DNA of 64,000 bases from a virus. Below are positions 6,010 through 54,739 of the stretch, in pieces (the stretch's first letter is position 1; each line of letters opens with the position of its first letter). The position numbers and the translations under genes are program-made. The notes under the pieces were generated by a model that was given only the letters and a program-made list of their open reading frames with translations, was not told the origin of the DNA and made no database searches. The stretch lies in IMG/VR virus record IMGVR_UViG_3300046821_000134, positions 1-64,000 of that record; one strand, written 5' to 3'.

Positions 6010-7592
6010 TCATCCACACTTACTGGTGCCACAATTGGTGCATTTCTGGCAGCCTTCCTCGTACACCACCTTTCCCCCGCACTCTGAGCATGCAATACCT
6101 TTGGCTACCTCCCCGTTCTTGATGAACGTGCTCAAGTACTTACGAATAGCAAACAAGAAGCTACCAATGAACACATCTTCCACTTGCTCAAGGGTGGACA
6201 CTACGCTTGTCACCTTCACACCGTGCCGTAGGTTAAGGCTAATTGCTCTAGCAATCTTGCTTGGGTTATTGTCCCCAACAACTTTCTGCTCAATCTCCTG
6301 CACAAACTTCTCAGGAACTCCTTTTGTACGTGCCAGATTGAACAACAAGTCTACTGCGTTTTGTGTTGTCACCCCCTTCTCTGAGTGATTGGTGTGTACA
6401 AACAAGGCCACGGGTTTGCTGTTATCTTCCGTTAAGATGGCTGTAACGTACCACTTCTTACCTTCTGCTTTCAATCGCTTTACGACAGCAGGAAGGCTAT
6501 CAGGGAGCTTTACATCATCAAGGATAATTTCCTCATCTTCTTGTTGATCGTCCTTTGCCGATAGAACACTTGCCATAGTACCAGACCGATAAGTAGTGAA
6601 TCCCTTGATGAAGCCGGTGTTGTAGACATCAAGATACAAGTCCTTGAACTGTTCATAGCCATACTCATACGGCAGATTCACAGTTTTGCTACAAGCGGAG
6701 TCGGTGTATTTAGCAAACACCTTCAGGCTTTCAACGTGGTCAGAAACACCTAGTTGCGTTGTGGTTGCTGCCCACTCAGCACTTGCATCCCATTCTCCAC
6801 GCTCCTTCAGCCAGCGTACAGCGTAGTCCTCGCAAGGAACTTCTTTTAGTAGTCCTCGGTTCTTGTCTATCTTGTACGTCACACCATTAAATACACCCTT
6901 CAGGATTGGTTCATCCCCTTCCTTCGTCTCCTTGAAGATTTCTGTCTCATACCACTGCCCCTCAAACCAACGAGGACATGCGTGAGCAATCTCCTCCGGC
7001 ATCACTGGAACAATAACTGTACGGATGTATTCCGGCATGAAGACAGGTTCAATACCTCCAGACACAATGTTTGCAAGGATACTTGTATTTCCAGTTGGTT
7101 GCTGAGACAGCAAGCTTGAGTTACGGATGCCCGTTGTACGCAGCTTCTGCATGTAGTCCTCATTCAGTCCGAGATTCTGGATGAATGGGGCTTTAGCGTG
7201 TTCTTCAGGGTTACAATACTTGAACATCCCTTTCTCAATAGCCAAGTCAATAGATGCTTCGTAGGCTGCAATAGCGTAAGCCTTGGAAACTTCCTCACAC
7301 AGCCGGTTAGCCTCTTTAGAACCAAAGCGCACCTTGAGCATGAACAGGGCACTACCAACGCCCATCAAGCCAACTCCTACACGACGCTTATTGCGCATTG
7401 AATCAATGTACTGAGGCAGCGGGGCATTTGAGTATTCATTCACATTATCCAAGAACCTTACCATGTACTTCGTGTGCTTCTTGATGCCTTCGATATCGAA
7501 CTTACGAACGCCATTTTCCTCTGTCACAAATTGTGTGAGGTTGATACTACCCAAGCAGCATATACCGCCCGGGGCTAAAACCTGCTCTCCAC
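6010..7592 (-). CDS. nrdJ: class II (B12-dependent) ribonucleotide reductase, exon 2
   Basis: (C)GEQ...CCLGSINL, RRVGVGLMG, QPTGNTSILANIVSGGIEP, KGFTTYR, C-terminal CxxC...CxxC..SKC; no nrdB in window. Confidence 0.93.
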
Positions 7593-7867
7593 CGCTTATG
7601 TTACGGATACATCGTTTCCATGTACCCTCTGCATGTCCCCATGCAGGCCAGACTATATCACAACCCGCGAGGGGTTTCTCCCATTTCGAGGTCACTTGGC
7701 CCCTACGGCTTTCGCCTAGTCGTTGCACGTTCTCCACTGCCATTACTTTCGCATACAAACGGTACTCGTGTTTGTGGAGCTTCGCTCAGGATTGACTGTT
7801 CTAGTCTTCCCCTGAATTAGAGAGATTGTTCAAAAGCAATCGCTTGCTTAGGCCGCTAGTTTTGTTA
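7593..7867 (-). mobile_element. group I intron (275 nt, no ORF) splitting the catalytic Cys codon of nrdJ
   Basis: Removal joins AAC CCG T|GT GGA GAG CAG = NPCGEQ; 5' exon ends in U paired to G in P1 (CCGU|UA...UAGCGG); intron ends in G; P7 elements AACGACUA and GAUAUAGUC. Confidence 0.95.
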
Positions 7868-8813
7868 ACGGGTTTGTGGACTTTATATTTTCTTGGTACT
7901 TTGCAGGATTGTAGTAATTCGCCCGATCAAGGAACAACACTCCCGGTTCTGCACGATTGTATGTGGATTCCATCACAAGGTTCCACAGTTGAAGAACAGA
8001 AATTGTGTCATACACAACAACAGGATATCCTTTAGCTTTCCAATCCTTGATATTGCCATTCCATTTTGCTTTATACGACGGGTGCTCAGTATCCGGGAAC
8101 ACCAAATCCCATTTATCTAAGTCTGCAAACTTTACAGGGTCTTCTTTGAGTTTGTTCAATCGCTCCATAAACTCATCGGAGAAATTCACAGAGATGTTAA
8201 ACTTAGTTAGGCGCCCGTGTTGTTGCTTTGCAGTGATGAATTCTATGACATCCGGGTGCCAATCATCCAAGCAGCCCATCATGGCACCTTTGCGAATCTT
8301 ACCCTTGGCCTTGCTATTGCTCTTCGTTTTACCAGAGCCTGATGTGACAATCTCAGATGACTTATCAAATAACTCCATAAACTTCACAGCCCCCGGGGTA
8401 TCTACGCCGATCCCCTTGATATAAGCACCACGTGGGCGAATGTAAGAGAAGTTCTCGCCGTAGCCTCCTTCCGACGCCAGTGTTTTTGCCTGCCAGTCCA
8501 GCCGCTGCATAATGCCCTGCAGGGAGTCAATGTCGTCGACTGTGTCTGGTCCAACAAAACAGTTTGCAAGTGTTGTATTCTTGAAATCAGTGCCTGCGTT
8601 GCTATAGATACGCCCGCCTGTGGTAGATTTAAAATCTGCAAGCATGTCTCCAAACTTCTCAGTCCATTCTTGAACTTTCTCTGGTGTTTTCTCCACACTT
8701 GCAAGTGCTCTTGCTACACGAGACAGTGTATCATCGATAGTGACATCTTCATGAAACTTATACGTACTCTCCCAAACGTCTTTAGAAAAACTATCCTGAA
8801 ATTTTGTCATCAT
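7868..8813 (-). CDS. nrdJ: class II ribonucleotide reductase, exon 1
   Basis: GGRIYSNAG, NCFV, EGGYG.NFS.IRPRG, RKGAMM, HPDVIEFI, KFNISV, AEPGVLF, STNP. Confidence 0.93.
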
Positions 8814-8963
8814 TTCCCTTTTCTTGTTGTTGTAGGCCATCAATCAGCCCTTGTTGATAAATACGCTGCGAGACTTTGTACAAAGCTGTATCGAAGCTAT
8901 ACCTGACGTTCGATGTAGCAGCCATTTCCTCCGCAAACATCTTACGAATTTCATTCAAATCAA

Positions 8964-10287: not shown

Positions 10288-11010
10288 TTATCCTCTCTTC
10301 ATCTTTTCAATCTGAAGCTCACGTTGAGCAAAGAAGATAATCTTTTCAAGATCGTACACACTATCTTCGTACCCCTTCTTAGCTTTACCTTTCTTTGCTG
10401 CACAGATGCGCCAGATAGCCTTGAAAATATTTCCTTCACTGAACGACATATCCAAGGCTTCAATTACATCCTGACACTCTACAGTATATGGATCGCCAGC
10501 AGAGACAGGGTTTGATACATCCACTTTGTAGTAGCTTGATGACCCTCCTGTATATTCTGGAACAGGCTCCTCAACCACCTCTGGCACTGGTTTATGAGCC
10601 ATGTTTTTATCATACTCCCCATTATCTACGCTATCCCAGAAGGCGTAGCCATGCCTTGTTCCGTCCCATGTAAACGCATCTACCAAGTATTCTGCATCGC
10701 TGAAGTTGATACCCCTATGCTTCTCCGTATCAAGAATCACATTACGCAAGGCAGAGAGAGCCCCCTCATTAAGAACGTCCTTGTAGGCATTCCACAGCTC
10801 AGGGGCGATGTCTTCTGGAGAGGTGGGTTTTGTGGCCTCTTTCACGACACGATAAGCAACTATGTCTCCCCCAAGATTAATGTGATCCCATCGAAGGTCT
10901 CCTGCAATTCCTAAACCGGGACTCCCCGTTCGTGTTTCATATTCAACTCCAGTTTGTTTAGGAACAGGGCATTCCCCGCCTTCCCATTTGATCCATTCAC
11001 TCTTTTCCAT
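10288..11010 (-). CDS. DUF3310-like protein with N-terminal W.GGECPV module
   Basis: Start MEKSEW after AGGAG; C-terminal GGSSSYY...EC.DVIEAL.M.F.EGNIFKA..R...DLEK. Confidence 0.75.
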   Translation of the reverse strand: MEKSEWIKWEGGECPVPKQTGVEYETRTGSPGLGIAGDLRWDHINLGGDIVAYRVVKEATKPTSPEDIAPELWNAYKDVLNEGALSALRNVILDTEKHRGINFSDAEYLVDAFTWDGTRHGYAFWDSVDNGEYDKNMAHKPVPEVVEEPVPEYTGGSSSYYKVDVSNPVSAGDPYTVECQDVIEALDMSFSEGNIFKAIWRICAAKKGKAKKGYEDSVYDLEKIIFFAQRELQIEKMKRG

Positions 11011-11467: not shown

Positions 11468-13207
11468 TTAGAACCCTTTATTGTTATTACTCATCCAATC
11501 ATCAAAATCATGAAGTCGGTGTGTAAGGTTATCGTAGAATAAACAGCCAGCAGGGCCAGTTTGTCCAGACCACCGGCATTTCAACAATAAAAGGTATGTT
11601 GTATTACGAACAATAGGGTCTTCATTAGCCTTATCTCGTCCAGCTACTAAAATCCAAGCAGCAGACTTCGAAAGAGTAGATGAGCCATGCAGGCCAGACT
11701 CGTTCCCTAGCGCGCCAGCACTCCCATCTTTCTCTCCTGTCCCGGTTTTACGCTGGTGAGATACGTTAATGATGCAGCAATCGTAACGATTTACAATACT
11801 CTTTTGCCATTTCATCAAAACAGCCTGTTCGTCTGTAGTTAGCCCATCAAACATGTCGGAGATAGTATCAACAACGACCACCTTACACCCACAAGCAATT
11901 ACCAGTTGCTCAATAGCTGACTTAAGGCTCTCTACGTCCCCGTCCCGGTCATCCACCACCATCCACCTATCTGTTCCATCCTCATTGAAGAATAGTTCCT
12001 TCTGTAACTCTACCGTTCGTTCAGATCGAAGAACAGTTAACTTGTCTGCTTGAGATAGATTTCCAAGTTTAATCTCAATATGACGGGATAACATAAGCTC
12101 TCCATATTGGCCTTTGTTCTGCTCCATGCTCACAACACCCATCTTATATGGAGAGCTGAATATCCAGTCATAGATGCACTCATTAACAATTGTACTCTTG
12201 GACTGCCCTGTAAAAGCACTTATCACGCCTACAGTGCCTAATGGAATTCCGTCGGCGGTCATCTGGTTCAGTGTCTTCATGAACGAAGGTAGGCGCAACT
12301 TTGGTCGCAGAGCTTCCTCAATAACCGCGTCGTATAGCTCCCCACTGCCTACAATTCCAGTAGGAAGATGTGGGCGGGCTTTCCAGAAATCATCAATAAA
12401 TTCGTGCTCTTTGCCAAGACGGATGTACTCATCAGCATCCTTATATCTCATCTTCATGATGTGCCCCTTACCTGCAGGCAGTACGTTACAAATGTCTTCA
12501 TTGGCCTTCTTTCCAGTCTCATCATTATCCATACATACAATGATCTTTGAAAACTGAGAGAAGAAATCATATTGAGCTTGAACTTGTTTGAACGCACCAT
12601 TTTCGCCAGTAGTGGGGCAAACTACAGCTACTGTCTCATACTCCTCCTTTCCACGTGCCCTTTGGTTATCAAGAAGCATTTGGTAAGCCGCTCGTTGTTT
12701 TATCTCTCCGCCTACAATAAGAACTGTACGAGAGTGACTACTGAAACGAAACTGCCCAATAAGGTCGCACTCTTTCCCTACAACACCTATCGGATGCTTG
12801 AAGTCTTTTGGGAACACCCTGGTCTTATATCCTACCAGCTTACCTCTAATTGTAGTCGGTACAAACTCCTTAATCGGCTCTCCTGTTTCTTCACTGTATT
12901 GATACCTAACACCAAAAAAGACATTTATATCCTTACGAATTCCTCTAAAGCCTTTTCCATCCGTGCCTGTATAGCTTTTAATATCTTCGTTCTGTTCCTC
13001 TGTAATTGGATCGCGTGTTGCCACTTCAACCTCCTTTTCTAATTTATTATCTCCGTTCTCGGCAAGCCACTGTTCAGACGGAATAGTGTACCCGCAAGAG
13101 AAACAGTATTTGGAGTTATCCTCATATACTACAAGATTGTCACCGCTCCTGTCTGCCCCCTTCCCTCTACACTTAGGGCATACCTCTTTCCTTATGAACT
13201 GTCCCAT
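11468..13207 (-). CDS. T7 gp4-like primase-helicase
   Basis: N-terminal Zn finger CPKC...CFSC; TOPRIM MDND..G, KDADE; SF4 helicase AFTGQSKS, VVVDTI, VSHQRK, KCRWSGQTGP. Confidence 0.95.
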   Translation of the reverse strand: MGQFIRKEVCPKCRGKGADRSGDNLVVYEDNSKYCFSCGYTIPSEQWLAENGDNKLEKEVEVATRDPITEEQNEDIKSYTGTDGKGFRGIRKDINVFFGVRYQYSEETGEPIKEFVPTTIRGKLVGYKTRVFPKDFKHPIGVVGKECDLIGQFRFSSHSRTVLIVGGEIKQRAAYQMLLDNQRARGKEEYETVAVVCPTTGENGAFKQVQAQYDFFSQFSKIIVCMDNDETGKKANEDICNVLPAGKGHIMKMRYKDADEYIRLGKEHEFIDDFWKARPHLPTGIVGSGELYDAVIEEALRPKLRLPSFMKTLNQMTADGIPLGTVGVISAFTGQSKSTIVNECIYDWIFSSPYKMGVVSMEQNKGQYGELMLSRHIEIKLGNLSQADKLTVLRSERTVELQKELFFNEDGTDRWMVVDDRDGDVESLKSAIEQLVIACGCKVVVVDTISDMFDGLTTDEQAVLMKWQKSIVNRYDCCIINVSHQRKTGTGEKDGSAGALGNESGLHGSSTLSKSAAWILVAGRDKANEDPIVRNTTYLLLLKCRWSGQTGPAGCLFYDNLTHRLHDFDDWMSNNNKGF

Positions 13208-15627: not shown

Positions 15628-15914
15628 TTGGGTTCTCCTTTATTCAGATATTGCCTCAAAGCATCACAAGCTTCTGTCAAGTAGTGCTCACGTTCGTCGT
15701 CCATAAAGATTCCATCACCTTTTGGACTAGCTTGATACACAGTGTAGCCTCCAGCATCAGGGCTGTCAACATAGAACCTTCCGTGCCGTAGCCGGAAGTA
15801 GCCTACTTGCCCTTCTCCGATGTAGGCATCGTATTGCTCGGGGCATGCGTAGCATGTTAGTACGAGGGTGAACTCCCCTATCTTGATGCAAGGCGCTTCG
15901 TATTCTTCAGACAT
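15624..15914 (-). CDS. conserved phage protein (ACPEQYD...GY.RLRHG family)
   Basis: Motif; first gene after the leftward promoter. Confidence 0.8.
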   Translation of the reverse strand: MSEEYEAPCIKIGEFTLVLTCYACPEQYDAYIGEGQVGYFRLRHGRFYVDSPDAGGYTVYQASPKGDGIFMDDEREHYLTEACDALRQYLNKGEPK

Positions 15915-15947
15915 TGTTATCCCTTTCTCTTTTAGTACAGTACATCC

Positions 15948-15976
15948 ATTCTATAACACGTATTCCAGTTTGTCAA
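15948..15976 (-). promoter_or_regulatory. leftward sigma70 promoter
   Basis: TTGACA-17-TAGAAT. Confidence 0.8.
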
Positions 15977-16016
15977 TCTCTTTGTAACTATTTCTGTGGT
16001 TTACTTTGATAGCCTA

Positions 16017-16044
16017 TTGACTTCTTGTGTTTTAGGGGTATAAT
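16017..16044 (+). promoter_or_regulatory. rightward sigma70 promoter driving a non-coding region
   Basis: TTGACT-16-TATAAT. Confidence 0.75.
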
Positions 16045-16050
16045 AGAGGT

Positions 16051-16428
16051 ATGGAGTGGAAGATGCCTTGTAGGCATTCCCCTTCTTCTTGATGTGTGTG
16101 TCGGATTGCTTACGCTTCGCACATCTCGTAGCCGTAAAGGAAACCTACATAGCGGCAAGGCTGGGTATCGGGATAAGTGGCTGAGTTTTCGGTGATGACT
16201 TTTTGTTAGTCTGATCTTCACAGTATATCGTGGGCTACGTCCTCTGCAATGAGCCTGTAGGAAGTGGATTGAGAGTTCCATAAACATTGCGGATTGTTGT
16301 TGATAGGTCTCAGCCTTGATATGACCACATTCTGGCTCCGGGGATGATACGGAAAAGGAAATGCAAAGACACTGCTCCTGCCCTCTGCCTATACGGCTTT
16401 GGGTAGGGGCATCTTTGCATTTCTTTCA
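16051..16428 (+). ncRNA. candidate structured ncRNA (~370 nt, two pseudoknot-type pairings)
   Basis: No credible ORF; promoter upstream; many nested and crossing helices; ends in a 12-bp stem plus TTTC. Confidence 0.55.
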
Positions 16429-16509
16429 CCAAAGATGATATGTAAAGTAATGATTATAAAGAACTATTAAGTATACTTAATAAGTAAACAATAAAGAGTT
16501 TCTTAAAGG

Positions 16510-16537
16510 TTGACAAACAAGAAAAAGAAGATAGAAT
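16510..16537 (+). promoter_or_regulatory. sigma70 promoter for the replication operon
   Basis: TTGACA-16-TAGAAT downstream of an AT-rich tract. Confidence 0.7.
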
Positions 16538-16570
16538 GGGTACATGCCTTAACGAAGAAGGGATTTCCCA

Positions 16571-16798
16571 ATGACCCTCCAACAACACCAAGCCTTACGT
16601 GCCTCTCTCCAGCAGAGAGGGTTTTCCTCATTACAATCCTATCGTGACAGCTTGTGTGCTCAGTACGGGCTGTCTGAAGACACAGCAGCATTCTATTTTA
16701 GTTGTTGCACAACGCCAGATGATGTGCTAACATGGATACATGAGATTATGATTCAGCACATGATTAACTGGAAAGTAAAGGAGAAGAATAATGGCTAA
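16571..16798 (+). CDS. hypothetical protein
   Basis: ORF after promoter, overlaps next gene. Confidence 0.55.
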   Translation: MTLQQHQALRASLQQRGFSSLQSYRDSLCAQYGLSEDTAAFYFSCCTTPDDVLTWIHEIMIQHMINWKVKEKNNG

Positions 16799-18588: not shown

Positions 18589-19262
18589 TGGCAAAAGACT
18601 CTGGATTGCGTAAAGGCGACAGATTTGGAAGACTTGTGGTTGATTCATGGGTGAAAGAGAAGCAAGGATGGAGGTGCTTCTGTGATTGCGGTAGTGTTGT
18701 TTTTAAACCAGCCAGCCACCTAAAATGTGGGAGTGTCCTATCTTGTGGATGCTATCGCAAGGAGTGTGATACCTTTAATGGCGGAACAATGTCTTACGAG
18801 TTCTCCTCCTTTATAGCAATGCACTCCAGAGCTGGCGATAAGCTCCAAGAAGGAAGGGTTAAGAGACAATACTACGACCAAGGAATAAGAGTTTGTGAAA
18901 GGTGGAGTTACTCCCTTGAAGGCTTTCAGAATTTTATTACTGATCTTGGAGAAAGACCGGAAGACTACACACTGGAAAGGAAAAATACAAATCTTGGTTA
19001 CTGCCCTGAAAATTGTTGTTGGGAAACTAAAACAAACCAAGCATTTAACAGAACAAAATTCAGGAACAACAAGTCTGGAGTAACAGGTGTATCGTTCGAC
19101 AAGAGTAAAGATAAATGGGTTGCATATATCCATAAGAATAAGGTAAAGTATCTACTCGGGTGTTTCAATTCTTTTGAGGATGCAGTTTCAGCCAGAAAAT
19201 CTGCAGAACTTGAAATTTATCCTGAGAAGATTCAGGACTATATTAGCACACAGGGGGAATAA
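18588..19262 (+). CDS. free-standing HNH homing endonuclease with AP2 domain
   Basis: G.RFGRLVV...W.C.CDCG...SCGC, GIRVCERW...F..D.GERP..YTLER.N...GY.PENC.W; C-terminal N.SGVTGV...KW.A.I AP2 module. Confidence 0.88.
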   Translation: MAKDSGLRKGDRFGRLVVDSWVKEKQGWRCFCDCGSVVFKPASHLKCGSVLSCGCYRKECDTFNGGTMSYEFSSFIAMHSRAGDKLQEGRVKRQYYDQGIRVCERWSYSLEGFQNFITDLGERPEDYTLERKNTNLGYCPENCCWETKTNQAFNRTKFRNNKSGVTGVSFDKSKDKWVAYIHKNKVKYLLGCFNSFEDAVSARKSAELEIYPEKIQDYISTQGE

Positions 19263-21367
19263 TGGAAGGCTACGTGTTCGATCTAGAGGGGGACAATCTG
19301 TACTTGGGTTGTAAGAAGATTTGGTATGGGAATTTCAAATCATTAGACGGCACACGTTCCCTTTCAGTTCATCCGTTCCAAGAAGGAAACGAAGAAGCAC
19401 AAGGTAAGATTTTGGAGTGGATTCATAGCTTCTCTGACAAAGCCTTGTGTTGCTCCTTTAATGGTTTATCTTACGACCACTTTGTCTTGTGGAGACTTCT
19501 GGGCCTTAAACCAACTGTTGGTAAAGGTGGTAAGGATTATTTTGCAGATAAAGAAGTTATATTTTTTGATGCTTTCTACAATGCTCAGTTTCTTAATCCG
19601 AACTTGCCAGAGTTCTCTCTTGCTGCGTTGTCGCGTGGATCAAGTGCAGAGAAGATTGATTATCGTGAAAGGCTTGTTCAAGCAGGAGCAATGATTGGAA
19701 ATGAGGTCAAGGGTTTCGAATTTTCTTTCTACAATCCTTTAATGGATGAATACTGCGACGCAGACGTTGAAGCAACACGCGTACTTGTTTTGAAACAACT
19801 TGCTGAGCTTAAAGAGTTATATGGGGATGTTCGCCCCCCATCGCTGAGAATGGGTACAAAAGCCCAATTCCTCATGAAAGCCCAAGAACACACAGGGCAC
19901 GGCTTTGATGAAAAATTGGCAGCAGAGGTAATGATCAGTTTGAACAAGGACATGGAAGAACTTGAGTCAGAGGTTCTCCCTAAGCTTCCGCCACGCCCTT
20001 TGAAGAAAGGGGAGGAAGCAGAGTACTCAATGCCCGCAAAACCTTACAAGAAGGATGGGTCTTTTAGTAGTCATATGGAGAACTTCATTTCCAAGCACTC
20101 CGGTGTGGTTAAGTCTAAAGACACTGTTGAGTTCTTCGGTAAGGACTATAAGGTTGAGGCAAAGAAGATTTTAGATATAAAGCTTCCAATGGTTATTGGG
20201 GATCAACAGCATTTCAAAGAGTGGCTTCTCAGTCAAGGGTGGGTGCCTACTTTCTATAATTTTCAACGTGGCCCAGATGGTAAGCCTGTTAGGGACGACA
20301 AAGGTAACTACATCGAAACATCTCCGAAGTTGCAGGAACAAGGGGTGATCTGCCCAAATCTTCTTGAATTAGAGGGCGACGTAGTTAAGGAGGTTGTTAA
20401 GTTTTTATCTTTAAGGAATCGCAGGTCTGTGCTGCAAGGTTGGTTGGATAATCCCCGTCTAAAATACGATGGAAGACTGCCAACAGCTTCCTCAAAAATT
20501 GCCAACTCTCACAGGCAATGTCACGCAGTGGTTTGTAATGTTCCTCGTGCTGGGGGTCAGAGTCTGTATGGGGACGAGTTTAGGAGCCTGTTTTGTGCAG
20601 AGGGAGAGAACCTTATCGCTGCTGCTGATGCAAGTGGGCTAGAGCAGCGTGTTGCTGGACACATGACTTTTAAGTATGATGAAGGCAAGTACGCGGAGGA
20701 GTTGCTGAAAGGGGATGTACACTCCAAGGTTGCATTTGCAATGTTTGAAAGAGAACTGGCTGCCTTAGGGTTCTCCCCAGACAAGTTTGACAAAGAGGAC
20801 AGAAGATTTAAGCCATTTAGAAGCAAAGCTAAAACAGCAGGATATGCTATACTGTATGGTTGTTCCCCAGCAAAGCTAGCCAAAACCCTCAACAAACCAG
20901 ATAAGGACGGAAAACGCCTGCACAAAGCATTCTGGGACGCAAATCCCGCAATGGCGCAGTTGGTTGAGAATATTGGAAAGTATTGGGAAACAAAAGGTAA
21001 AAAGACATTTGTGCCTGCTGTGGACGGTAGGTTGCTGAGAACTCGTTCAAAGCATTCTCTTTTAAATAATATCCTACAGAGTTTGGGGGCAATCGTAATG
21101 GACTTAGCTTGTTGTTTCATGGATGCAAAACTTGGTGAAATGTTTATTGATGAACTTGGGAGACCATATTACCTGTACAAAGGCAAACAGGTCAGGCGTG
21201 TCGTCTACTATCACGACGAGTATTCTTTTGAGTGTGCCCCAGAGGTAGCGGAGGAAGTGAAGAAAATGGCAGAAAACAGCATTGCTGAAGCTGGAAGATT
21301 CTTTAAACTAAACGTAGAGTTGGCTGGAGAGGGGAAGGTGGGTAAATCATGGCAAGCGGTGCATTGA
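19262..21367 (+). CDS. family A DNA polymerase (T7-like, Tyr at motif-B position 762)
   Basis: Exonuclease DLE, FNG..YD, YC..DV; motif A ADASGLEQR; motif B KAKTAGYAILYG; motif C YYHDE. Confidence 0.96.
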   Translation: MEGYVFDLEGDNLYLGCKKIWYGNFKSLDGTRSLSVHPFQEGNEEAQGKILEWIHSFSDKALCCSFNGLSYDHFVLWRLLGLKPTVGKGGKDYFADKEVIFFDAFYNAQFLNPNLPEFSLAALSRGSSAEKIDYRERLVQAGAMIGNEVKGFEFSFYNPLMDEYCDADVEATRVLVLKQLAELKELYGDVRPPSLRMGTKAQFLMKAQEHTGHGFDEKLAAEVMISLNKDMEELESEVLPKLPPRPLKKGEEAEYSMPAKPYKKDGSFSSHMENFISKHSGVVKSKDTVEFFGKDYKVEAKKILDIKLPMVIGDQQHFKEWLLSQGWVPTFYNFQRGPDGKPVRDDKGNYIETSPKLQEQGVICPNLLELEGDVVKEVVKFLSLRNRRSVLQGWLDNPRLKYDGRLPTASSKIANSHRQCHAVVCNVPRAGGQSLYGDEFRSLFCAEGENLIAAADASGLEQRVAGHMTFKYDEGKYAEELLKGDVHSKVAFAMFERELAALGFSPDKFDKEDRRFKPFRSKAKTAGYAILYGCSPAKLAKTLNKPDKDGKRLHKAFWDANPAMAQLVENIGKYWETKGKKTFVPAVDGRLLRTRSKHSLLNNILQSLGAIVMDLACCFMDAKLGEMFIDELGRPYYLYKGKQVRRVVYYHDEYSFECAPEVAEEVKKMAENSIAEAGRFFKLNVELAGEGKVGKSWQAVH

Positions 21368-53465: not shown

Positions 53466-53698
53466 CCTTCCTCCAAATCAAACTTAAAATACATCCCCTT
53501 ATTGCTACTATTCACAGCAATGATGGGCAACTTCCTCGCATTGGCAATCAATGCCAATAGCTCAATAAATTCCTTAGAACTCTTCCCCACAACATCTACG
53601 CAATCCAATGAGAGAGAATCTAGCTCGCCGTCCTCATCAAGATAGGCCCAACGCAGGGAGTATTTCCCACGATAAGAAACTACACGAATGTTCTTCAC
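53462..53698 (-). CDS. hypothetical protein
   Basis: AAGGA RBS; overlaps terL start. Confidence 0.65.
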   Translation of the reverse strand: MKNIRVVSYRGKYSLRWAYLDEDGELDSLSLDCVDVVGKSSKEFIELLALIANARKLPIIAVNSSNKGMYFKFDLEEG

Positions 53699-53725
53699 TT
53701 ACATTTCCTTTACGAATAAATGGAA

Positions 53726-53759
53726 CAAAAATAACGCCCAAAGGATTTCTCCTTGGGCG
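53726..53759 (-). terminator. intrinsic terminator closing the large ncRNA
   Basis: CGCCCAAGGA-GAAA-TCCTTTGGGCG-TTATTTTTG. Confidence 0.85.
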
Positions 53760-54294
53760 CATTGAAACACTATATCGGAAAGGATAAGTGAGAGGAGAAA
53801 CTTAGAGATTATCTGTCCCAACGCATCTCACGCCGGGAGGGTGTTTGCTTCAACACCTAAGCTCCACTGTAAGCAACAGCAGAGGAATACGCGTAACTCT
53901 TTAGGAGAAGGGTTTTACGCATTGGTTGTGGGTGACCGACTCGTCAGCGGGGTGCTTCCCCAGACAGGCGTATAGTCGATTAGCTCAGTCTCGCATACAC
54001 GCAGTGCGAAACATAGTTACAGCGTCCTGTAACGATCCTCTTTTACCCACAAGGAAGTAGTCTATCCGAGGATGTCTTAACACTTGTGGGCTAGGACTTC
54101 CTGTTCTGACTGCTTCCTTGTAGGTGCTGGTTACTAATCCAGCGATAGGCTTTCGGGCTACCAGCTCCACTGTCCCGCCTGTGTCTTATTACGCATTTCA
54201 GGTCTTTGCGTACAACATCCCCGGAGGTCAAAGGAGGTAACAAATCCCTCCGGGGAACACATCACAATGTGTCTTTTCTCATCTCTCACTGTAT
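53727..54294 (-). ncRNA. candidate large ornate ncRNA (~570 nt)
   Basis: Consensus promoter and terminator; no credible ORF; 5' and 3' ends pair; many long helices. Confidence 0.7.
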
Positions 54295-54300
54295 ATAGAC

Positions 54301-54329
54301 ATTATATACCCGGGATGTGTCTTTGTCAA
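54301..54329 (-). promoter_or_regulatory. perfect-consensus sigma70 promoter
   Basis: TTGACA-17-TATAAT facing a non-coding region. Confidence 0.9.
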
Positions 54330-54337
54330 GCTATTTA

Positions 54338-54739
54338 TTAAACATTTTTCAGATGGTCAATGTCCAACACACCATCTCCTGTGGTAGCATCTTCTCCGTC
54401 AATGTTTTGAATAACACTTGGAGAGAATGTTACACGAGGCTTCCCATCTTCCTCTTCTGGAGTTATTGTCTTCATGCCAATACGGACAAGCTGTTTCTCT
54501 TGCAGTTCTGCTCTGACATTGGCAATACTAGCTGCAAGGTTATTCTTTGCACTCCTATCAATATTCTCTGACTGCAACGTAAGCACCTTAGTAATCAAAT
54601 CAGCCTTTATCTTGATATCAGCCTCAGGGTCTTGCAGGATTGCAATAGCAGCATTATAGGCCATCTTGGAGAGCTTATCAAGGTTCTTGATCAGCTTTTT
54701 CTGCTCTGCTGTGATGGCTTTTGCGTCAATTTCCTTCAT
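54338..54739 (-). CDS. putative terminase small subunit
   Basis: Helical 133-aa protein upstream of terL; call is positional only. Confidence 0.45.
   Translation of the reverse strand: MKEIDAKAITAEQKKLIKNLDKLSKMAYNAAIAILQDPEADIKIKADLITKVLTLQSENIDRSAKNNLAASIANVRAELQEKQLVRIGMKTITPEEEDGKPRVTFSPSVIQNIDGEDATTGDGVLDIDHLKNV

Follow-up and report, generated by a model that had tools for sequence, protein, structure and literature searches.

A gene-free gap between the helicase and polymerase arms

The window, by which we mean the whole 64-kb stretch of DNA that was analysed, covers the opening 64 kb of an IMG/VR phage record that is 80,152 bp long and whose ends overlap by 115 bp. The closest named phages are Pseudomonas syringae phages of ~99 kb, with a helicase identity of only 47%. 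The unit of interest here is non-coding and sits inside a 650-bp gap without genes (15915-16570). The left arm, on the minus strand, encodes a 96-aa PHROG 21607 protein, a cell-wall hydrolase and a T7 gp4-like primase/helicase (11468-13207). The right arm, on the plus strand, encodes a 75-aa protein, a putative DNA-binding protein, a nucleotidyltransferase, an HNH endonuclease and Pol A (19262-21367). An earlier sequence-only reading of this DNA had placed the site between a helicase arm and a polymerase arm, and the positions of these two genes on opposite strands bear this out.

Three sigma70 promoters, each with 11/12 consensus matches, are found inside the gap. These are a leftward promoter (P_left), the promoter of the RNA, and a rightward promoter (P_right). 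Together with the parts of the predicted RNA and the tract that follows it, they make up the features listed here.

15948-15976, minus strand: P_left, promoter of the leftward helicase-arm operon (TTGACA-17-TAGAAT, 11/12), back-to-back with the RNA promoter
16017-16044, plus strand: promoter of the non-coding unit (TTGACT-16-TATAAT, 11/12 sigma70), predicted start ~16051
16051-16427, plus strand: predicted non-coding transcript of ~377 nt, with promoter and terminator, and with no ORF or protein family
16051-16087, plus strand: 5'-terminal stem-loop with the core AUGCCU/AGGCAU, hypervariable in sequence and conserved in structure
16091-16125, plus strand: second hairpin, GAUGUGUG/CGCACAUC, predicted by both the MFE and the centroid fold; z -2.3 for its 90-nt window
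16126-16352, plus strand: RNA body, conserved in sequence in relatives, with no detectable structure (z +0.77)
16355-16426, plus strand: long hairpin resembling a bidirectional intrinsic terminator, with an AAGGAAA A-tract, a 22-bp interrupted G+C-rich stem and a U-tract
16429-16509, no strand: AT-rich tract with a perfect 18-bp palindrome (16465-16482) that is unique in the genome
16510-16537, plus strand: P_right, promoter of the rightward Pol A-arm operon (TTGACA-16-TAGAAT, 11/12)

The promoter TTGACT-16-TATAAT that had been claimed for the RNA is present. Near-consensus sigma70 sites are enriched ~20-fold in the 80-kb genome, which has 21 of them against 1.07 +/- 1.0 expected from dinucleotide shuffles, and most of the 21 are located 15-75 nt ahead of a gene on the same strand. 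The DNA 3' of the RNA promoter is free of genes for 527 nt.

The outer two promoters are related to each other. P_left and P_right can be aligned from the -35 box through the leader and the Shine-Dalgarno region to the start codon, and are therefore inverted paralogues, the control regions concerned being 15912-16000 (minus strand) and 16486-16574 (plus strand). They have in common TTGACAAAC...ATAGAATGG, the GGGAT Shine-Dalgarno region and a CAATG start. The RNA promoter is different in make from both. A third promoter, at genome position 70863, likewise ends in TAGAATGG, and the sharing of this end by P_left, P_right and the 70863 promoter suggests a promoter class.

In every helicase relative that was fetched (L014-L019), Pol A lies 3' of the helicase and on the same strand, whereas here the two genes are in divergent arms. 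The genome therefore carries an inversion, one end of which is near 16 kb. Elsewhere in the window, a group I intron is found at 7629-7877 on the minus strand (Rfam RF00028, 64 bits, E 6e-14), between the ORFs 7848-8843 and 6010-7758.

The AT-rich tract that the sequence-only reading had described directly after the RNA is confirmed, with 16428-16507 (80% AT) being the AT-richest 80-bp window in the 80-kb genome. The tract 16429-16509 may be an operator, an UP region or a DNA-unwinding element. It contains AAGTA four times against 0.47 expected, this motif having been picked post hoc. In three phages that otherwise cannot be aligned, the replication operon is headed by an AT-rich tract in which AAGTA is enriched; the counts of AAGTA/TAAGTA, again post hoc, are 4 in the window, 7 in L017 (1900-2250) and 3 in L019 (5040-5125), against 0.5, 1.9 and 0.4 expected. 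In L017, a relative at 46% identity, 1900-2250 contains 330 bp with a GC content of 16-24%, several direct and inverted repeats and a (GCAAA)n run, and a promoter-like site points directly into this tract, which is a plausible origin.

Conservation of the control block in relatives

Relatives of the unit are known as contigs of public runs, X5 from wastewater and X8 from groundwater, and these were aligned to the stretch. The X5 contigs match 15998-16517 with 14 substitutions and 3 gaps, and the X8 contigs match 15942-16538 with 20 substitutions and 4 gaps, the identity being ~96-97% in both. On the left flank of both relatives the 96-aa gene is deleted, with joints from 15631 or 15642 to 15942, which is exactly the predicted start of P_left; on the right flank the first gene is replaced from 16556-16562. 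The block 15942-16538 is thus retained and its flanks are mosaic, and the conclusion is that a control block containing the RNA unit is kept while neighbouring genes are exchanged. Judged from these alignments, early genes seem to be exchanged as cassettes around a fixed control block.

Within the block, 7 of the 13 listed X5 substitutions fall in 16066-16086, as do both listed indels, and the other 6 are spread over the remaining ~430 nt; the body (16126-16352) has 4 listed X5 substitutions. Because several strains are present per run and about half of the X8 differences are listed, greater conservation of the body than of its flanks is no more than likely. Instead of constraint, a recent recombination event involving the block could account for this lower divergence. 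Fourteen DNA runs have a share of ~0.3 of the sampled words, which would fit a conserved core of ~400 nt (X5 and X8 were the runs aligned). Neither these shares nor the small word shares of the unaligned RNA runs among X20-X24 were counted as evidence.

Searches for more distant counterparts gave little. A blastn search of phage and plasmid collections returned no match to the unit, exact-pattern scans returned none in IMG/VR, none in GTDB genomes and two chance matches only in metagenomes, and the full records of five related phages held nothing below E 0.13. The nearest relatives that could be retrieved, L014 and L015 (83-84% helicase identity), have no homologue of the RNA, and the body has no counterpart in L014-L019, which have replisome genes in common with this phage. 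No relative was found for the 196-aa right-hand protein. Two sets of loci were considered as comparators and set aside: those of the 96-aa protein (L003-L013), which are not syntenic, and the helicase loci L014-L020 as positional homologues, which have another gene order, with Pol A 3' of the helicase.

Coding potential, transcription and folding of the RNA

The absence of a credible ORF, as had been proposed, holds up well. All six frames either resemble a random translation or are stop-ridden. Neither the 99-aa frame on the minus strand nor the 56-aa frame on the plus strand matches a Pfam or PHROG family; the former has no homologue among 5.8 billion proteins, and in relatives it contains a net -1 indel. 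The sole frame with a Shine-Dalgarno sequence ahead of it encodes 9 aa and has disappeared from the relatives, no ORF of at least 10 aa being found behind such a sequence. Coding by the 99-aa, 56-aa, 30-aa or 9-aa frames was rejected on these grounds, namely random-like translation, the lack of families for the 99-aa and 56-aa frames, and loss of the AUG for the 9-aa frame. Identity as a tRNA or tmRNA was also tested and dropped.

Two RNA runs contain contigs from the unit, without ends or strand: X19 has a contig at 16065-16293 and X22 one at 16334-16469. On a 2.6-kb stretch X19 has only two contigs, this one and 15764-15900, which lie directly 3' of the RNA promoter and of P_left, respectively. 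These contigs hint at transcription of the unit, an RNA library being able to hold DNA as well. The X22 contig passes through the terminal hairpin into the AT tract, as far as 16469, and termination at 16355-16426 may accordingly be leaky.

The terminal hairpin, GAAAUGCAAAGA/UCUUUGCAUUUC, is the strongest structural element of the RNA and exists as proposed, well beyond chance (-45 kcal/mol, z -8.28, with none of 200 shuffles as good). It is 72 nt long, and its upper 58 nt (16362-16419) alone give -35.4 kcal/mol and z -7.2. The U-tract UUUCUUUC is at 16420-16427, directly 3' of the hairpin stem. Two changes in relatives fall within it: 16357 G>A, in X5, replaces a G.U pair by A-U, and 16391 A>C affects the loop. 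The hairpin has the appearance of an intrinsic terminator.

The sequence-only reading had gone further and described a compact RNA, with nested helices and two pairings that cross them. Folding of the plus-strand RNA was compared with that of shuffles and with that of 850 native windows taken from this genome. For the full 379 nt, z is -2.79 on the plus strand and -2.22 on the minus strand, and among the native windows the plus strand is in the best-folding 1.6%, the minus strand being ordinary. The value of -2.79 for the whole RNA is due to the terminal hairpin. Without it, z is +0.68 for the body (16050-16352), where 74 of 100 shuffles do as well or better, and +0.77 for the core 16126-16352, and all 90-nt windows in 16085-16394 have z about 0 or above (-0.07 to +1.39). 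Since the body folds no better than shuffled controls, the compact pseudoknotted fold does not pass the test that the sequence-only reading had itself set, and is unsupported.

The individual helices were treated in the same way. Every complementary segment that had been listed is present where it was said to be, but helices of 6-8 nt are no commoner than expected by chance. Perfect complementary 6-, 7- and 8-mers number 15, 4 and 1 in the body, against 8.3, 2.2 and 0.5 in dinucleotide shuffles (p 0.06, 0.20 and 0.32). The two crossing pairings show chance-level complementarity, and they also cross one another (16127<16144<16239<16261). The predicted hairpin at 16091-16125 has no listed variation in the relatives. 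Rfam covariance models gave nothing at gathering score, and a permissive search gave best matches of E 0.24-7.5, all to unrelated eukaryotic families. Covariation among homologues gave a divided answer: compensatory changes are found in the 5' stem-loop, whereas the proposed main long-range helix, CAAGGCUG/CAGCCUUG, is broken in both X5 and X8, where 16313 G>A turns a central C-G pair into C.A.

The changes in the 5' stem-loop are of several kinds. At 16066:16074 the window has a C-G pair, whereas X8 has U.G and X5 has U-A. A 2-nt deletion in X8, together with 16078 T>C, gives an unbroken 9-bp stem, with the lower stem re-registered, and in both X5 and X8 the change 16086 T>G lengthens the stem to the predicted +1. 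The MFE of the stem-loop (window and two relatives) is -14.5/-14.1/-20.6 kcal/mol on the plus strand, against -11.8/-9.7/-11.2 on the minus strand. Random mutants carrying an equal load of changes have means of -9 to -12 kcal/mol and are less stable than the stem-loops of the relatives (p 0.005-0.009 for X8 and 0.08-0.09 for X5, these being two non-independent tests). The compensatory changes, the re-registering indels and the plus-strand stability together support selection of the 5'-terminal stem-loop at the RNA level, on the plus strand only. This stem-loop and the 3' hairpin are the only parts of the RNA fold that have support. In the description of the locus as a folded non-coding RNA, therefore, the part that survives is a non-coding and probably discrete plus-strand transcript; the compact pseudoknotted fold does not, its body being no better than shuffles.

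A promoter-to-terminator RNA and the competing readings

The best reading is that this is a phage non-coding RNA or terminated leader, which is a known kind of element, and not a new class of structured RNA. The uncultivated 80-kb phage probably makes a non-coding RNA of ~377 bases, which would begin at a strong promoter of the host type and end at a strong terminator hairpin. Specifically, we give a probability of roughly one half to a self-contained early phage transcription unit that yields this RNA. Host sigma70 RNA polymerase would initiate at ~16051 from the near-consensus promoter and would halt at ~16427, at the very stable hairpin and UUUCUUUC. The 5'-terminal stem-loop would be of the kind that protects a 5' end against RNase E-type decay, and the terminator hairpin would protect the 3' end. 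Between them, the ~230-nt body, with its conserved sequence and no compact fold, would be left accessible. If the RNA is active, its most likely mode of action would be for this accessible sequence to pair with a host or phage partner or to titrate one, and not for the RNA to work as a ribozyme-like structure. In silico, the reading is supported by the quality of the promoter, the terminator, the absence of coding, the compensation in the 5' stem-loop and the conservation of the block among relatives; we infer accumulation of the RNA, efficient termination and any trans-acting role.

Promoter-to-terminator non-coding RNA candidates are common in virulent phages and mostly of no known role, according to an ONT-cappable-seq study (PMC10914365). 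The Pseudomonas phage RNAs described in that study resemble the present unit in having their own start and a terminator before the next gene, in being conserved in close relatives, and in having no ORF of at least 10 aa behind a canonical Shine-Dalgarno sequence. Here, the own start is a predicted 11/12 sigma70 promoter. One of the RNAs in the same study, that of PAK_P3 upstream of a primase/helicase gene, is also close to replication genes. Four of the examples there are 89-210 nt long, against ~377 nt for the RNA predicted here, and unlike those examples, this one has a second full promoter between its terminator and the operon. Long phage non-coding RNAs with a strong promoter of their own remain poorly understood, and since this unit sits in a control hub between replication arms and is kept in wastewater, groundwater and freshwater phages whose neighbouring genes are exchanged, it may reasonably be proposed as a functional early RNA. 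Neither a new family of structured RNAs nor a primer of the RNA II type would be an appropriate label for it.

The main rival is that the RNA promoter is a tandem early promoter and the RNA a non-coding leader of the rightward operon, the hairpin being a conditional terminator or an RNase III site and the RNA a by-product. In the T7 early leader, transcription runs from promoters A1-A3 to the RNase III site R0.3, and the lambda unit consists of PR', 6S RNA and tR'. The present unit is like T7 A1-R0.3 and lambda PR'-6S in its strong host-type promoter, its hundreds of non-coding nucleotides, the long hairpin before the first gene of an operon and the discrete small RNA that would result. The unit is co-directional with the right operon and 130 nt from its first gene, the hairpin has a near-continuous duplex of ~29 bp, which is long enough for RNase III, and the X22 contig spans the hairpin into the AT tract. 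Another such non-coding unit, at 54329-53726, lies directly 5' of large late genes, and RNAs derived from 5'UTRs by premature termination are frequent in phages (PMC10914365). However, the right operon keeps an 11/12 promoter of its own between the hairpin and its first gene, so that read-through is unneeded, and it is this full promoter that weakens the rival. The lambda arrangement has no promoter between terminator and operon, and here P_right (16510-16537) occupies that place. The hairpin, unlike those of the T7 and lambda leaders, carries a U-tract, the whole layout of A-tract, stem and U-tract being that of a terminator, and no antiterminator gene was identified. We therefore regard a leader as rather unlikely, although it is the alternative that survives best.

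It is quite improbable that the transcript is linked to an origin, with transcription from the promoter at 16017 opening or priming replication, either by activation of the T7 or T4 type or through an R-loop like that of ColE1 RNA II, which is a role that the sequence-only reading had proposed alongside that of a regulatory RNA. The T7 primary origin and T4 oriF and oriG combine a promoter with an AT-rich unwinding element. This phage is like them in having a promoter 5' of the most AT-rich tract in its genome (16428-16507, 80% AT), and it encodes a gp4-like primase-helicase and a Pol A. The tract carries its unique 18-bp palindrome 3' of the RNA, the site heads both replication arms, and AAGTA is enriched here as well as in the AT-rich replication-operon gaps of L017 and L019, although the motif was picked after the sequences had been inspected. 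The promoter-like site of L017 fires into a repeat-bearing 330-bp tract of 16-24% GC, and an A/T-rich cluster is present in the T7 origin (PMC12839067). Nevertheless, the promoter here is 385 nt away from the tract, unlike in T7 and T4, and a terminator-like hairpin stands between them, so that the RNA would come free instead of staying hybridised; the X22 contig does cross this hairpin. The gene order of the relatives differs, so that the gaps in their genomes do not correspond to this one by position. In L014-L019 no counterpart of the 300-nt body exists, despite the common replisome genes. Finally, the cumulative GC-skew minimum at ~16 kb follows the switch in gene direction, and there is a deeper minimum at 60.9 kb.

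The resemblance to ColE1 RNA II is in a promoter-driven RNA of hundreds of nucleotides, directed towards an AT-rich tract and with a G-rich segment in its 3' hairpin. The differences are more telling. ColE1 RNA II runs unterminated into its origin, where a persistent RNA-DNA hybrid can form and where RNase H cleaves the RNA and a polymerase extends it, whereas here a predicted hairpin of -45 kcal/mol and UUUCUUUC precede the AT tract. It has a defined pre-primer fold, whereas the body here is not detectably folded (z +0.68, core +0.77, and helices at chance level). An antisense promoter like that of RNA I is lacking, with no minus-strand site of at least 9/12 in 16050-16430, and there is no Rfam match or sequence similarity to RNA II. 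A pre-primer of this type is accordingly unlikely, and the idea of an origin attaches to the neighbouring AT tract, not to the RNA.

A more speculative possibility, and one to which we give little weight, is that replication at the AT tract is licensed by the RNA or by its transcription as such, or that the conserved, unstructured body is a decoy or antisense RNA directed against a host factor or defence system. If licensing were true, the unit would be a host-RNA-polymerase counterpart of the transcription-activated origins of T7 and T4, with a conserved RNA of ~377 nt, shielded at both ends, delivering or anchoring the opening event.

It is also very doubtful that the unit is leftover DNA without function, either a decayed 'moron' cassette (promoter, dead gene and terminator) or filler where an inversion has joined two inverted copies of the operon control region. 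The stretch is flanked by P_left and P_right, which together with their leaders are inverted paralogues, the genome carries an inversion (the helicase and Pol A of relatives being on one strand), and the body is unstructured and without a homologue in any collection searched. Against this, no frame is protein-like, the promoter remains near-consensus, the changes in the 5' stem-loop are compensatory, and the block is ~96-97% identical in relatives whose flanking genes have been deleted or replaced. The last alternative, a small protein encoded by the 30-aa frame at 16092-16184 or by the 9-aa frame at 16063, is extremely improbable. In its favour, a GGAG at 16053-56 is 6 nt 5' of the AUG at 16063, and 16087-16192 has no listed difference in X5 or X8; against it, the AUG of the 9-aa frame is gone in both relatives, the 30-aa frame has no Shine-Dalgarno sequence, and the larger 99-aa minus-strand and 56-aa plus-strand frames match no family.

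Possible partners of the RNA were also sought under the preferred reading, that of a self-contained unit yielding a non-coding RNA, which may be regulatory, the other role offered by the sequence-only reading. Against 119 phage translation-initiation regions, the top duplex was -41.0 compared with a shuffle mean of -44.7, and none stands out; an antisense role towards the phage's own genes was therefore rejected, the duplex energies over these 119 regions being no better than those of shuffled RNA. Pairing of CCCUUCUUC (16080-88) with the ribosome-binding site GAAGAAGGG (16554-62) was rejected because the RNA side is changed at 3 positions in X5 and the target is the same. A sponge for CsrA of the CsrB/RsmZ type was likewise rejected: the RNA has 11 GGA against 6.0 +/- 3.1 in native windows, 8% of which have at least 11, and its GGA motifs are mostly predicted to be paired. 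The hexamer GGATTG occurs three times in the RNA, a post hoc observation that is about as likely as not for some 6-mer.

It is worth adding that 16066-16080 is a perfect 15-nt direct repeat of 10779-10793 (E 0.023), inside a 259-aa gene on the minus strand, so that the RNA would be complementary to the mRNA of that gene. This part of the RNA belongs to the hypervariable hairpin and varies in relatives, and the repeat is probably due to chance.

The other promoter-to-terminator non-coding unit of this genome (54329-53726, minus strand, within 53551-54380) has a 12/12 promoter at 54329, and no further promoter of at least 11/12 lies between the unit and the large gene downstream. No part of the genome folds better than this region, 53551-54380, where the residual z reaches -3.2 in the set of 850 native windows.
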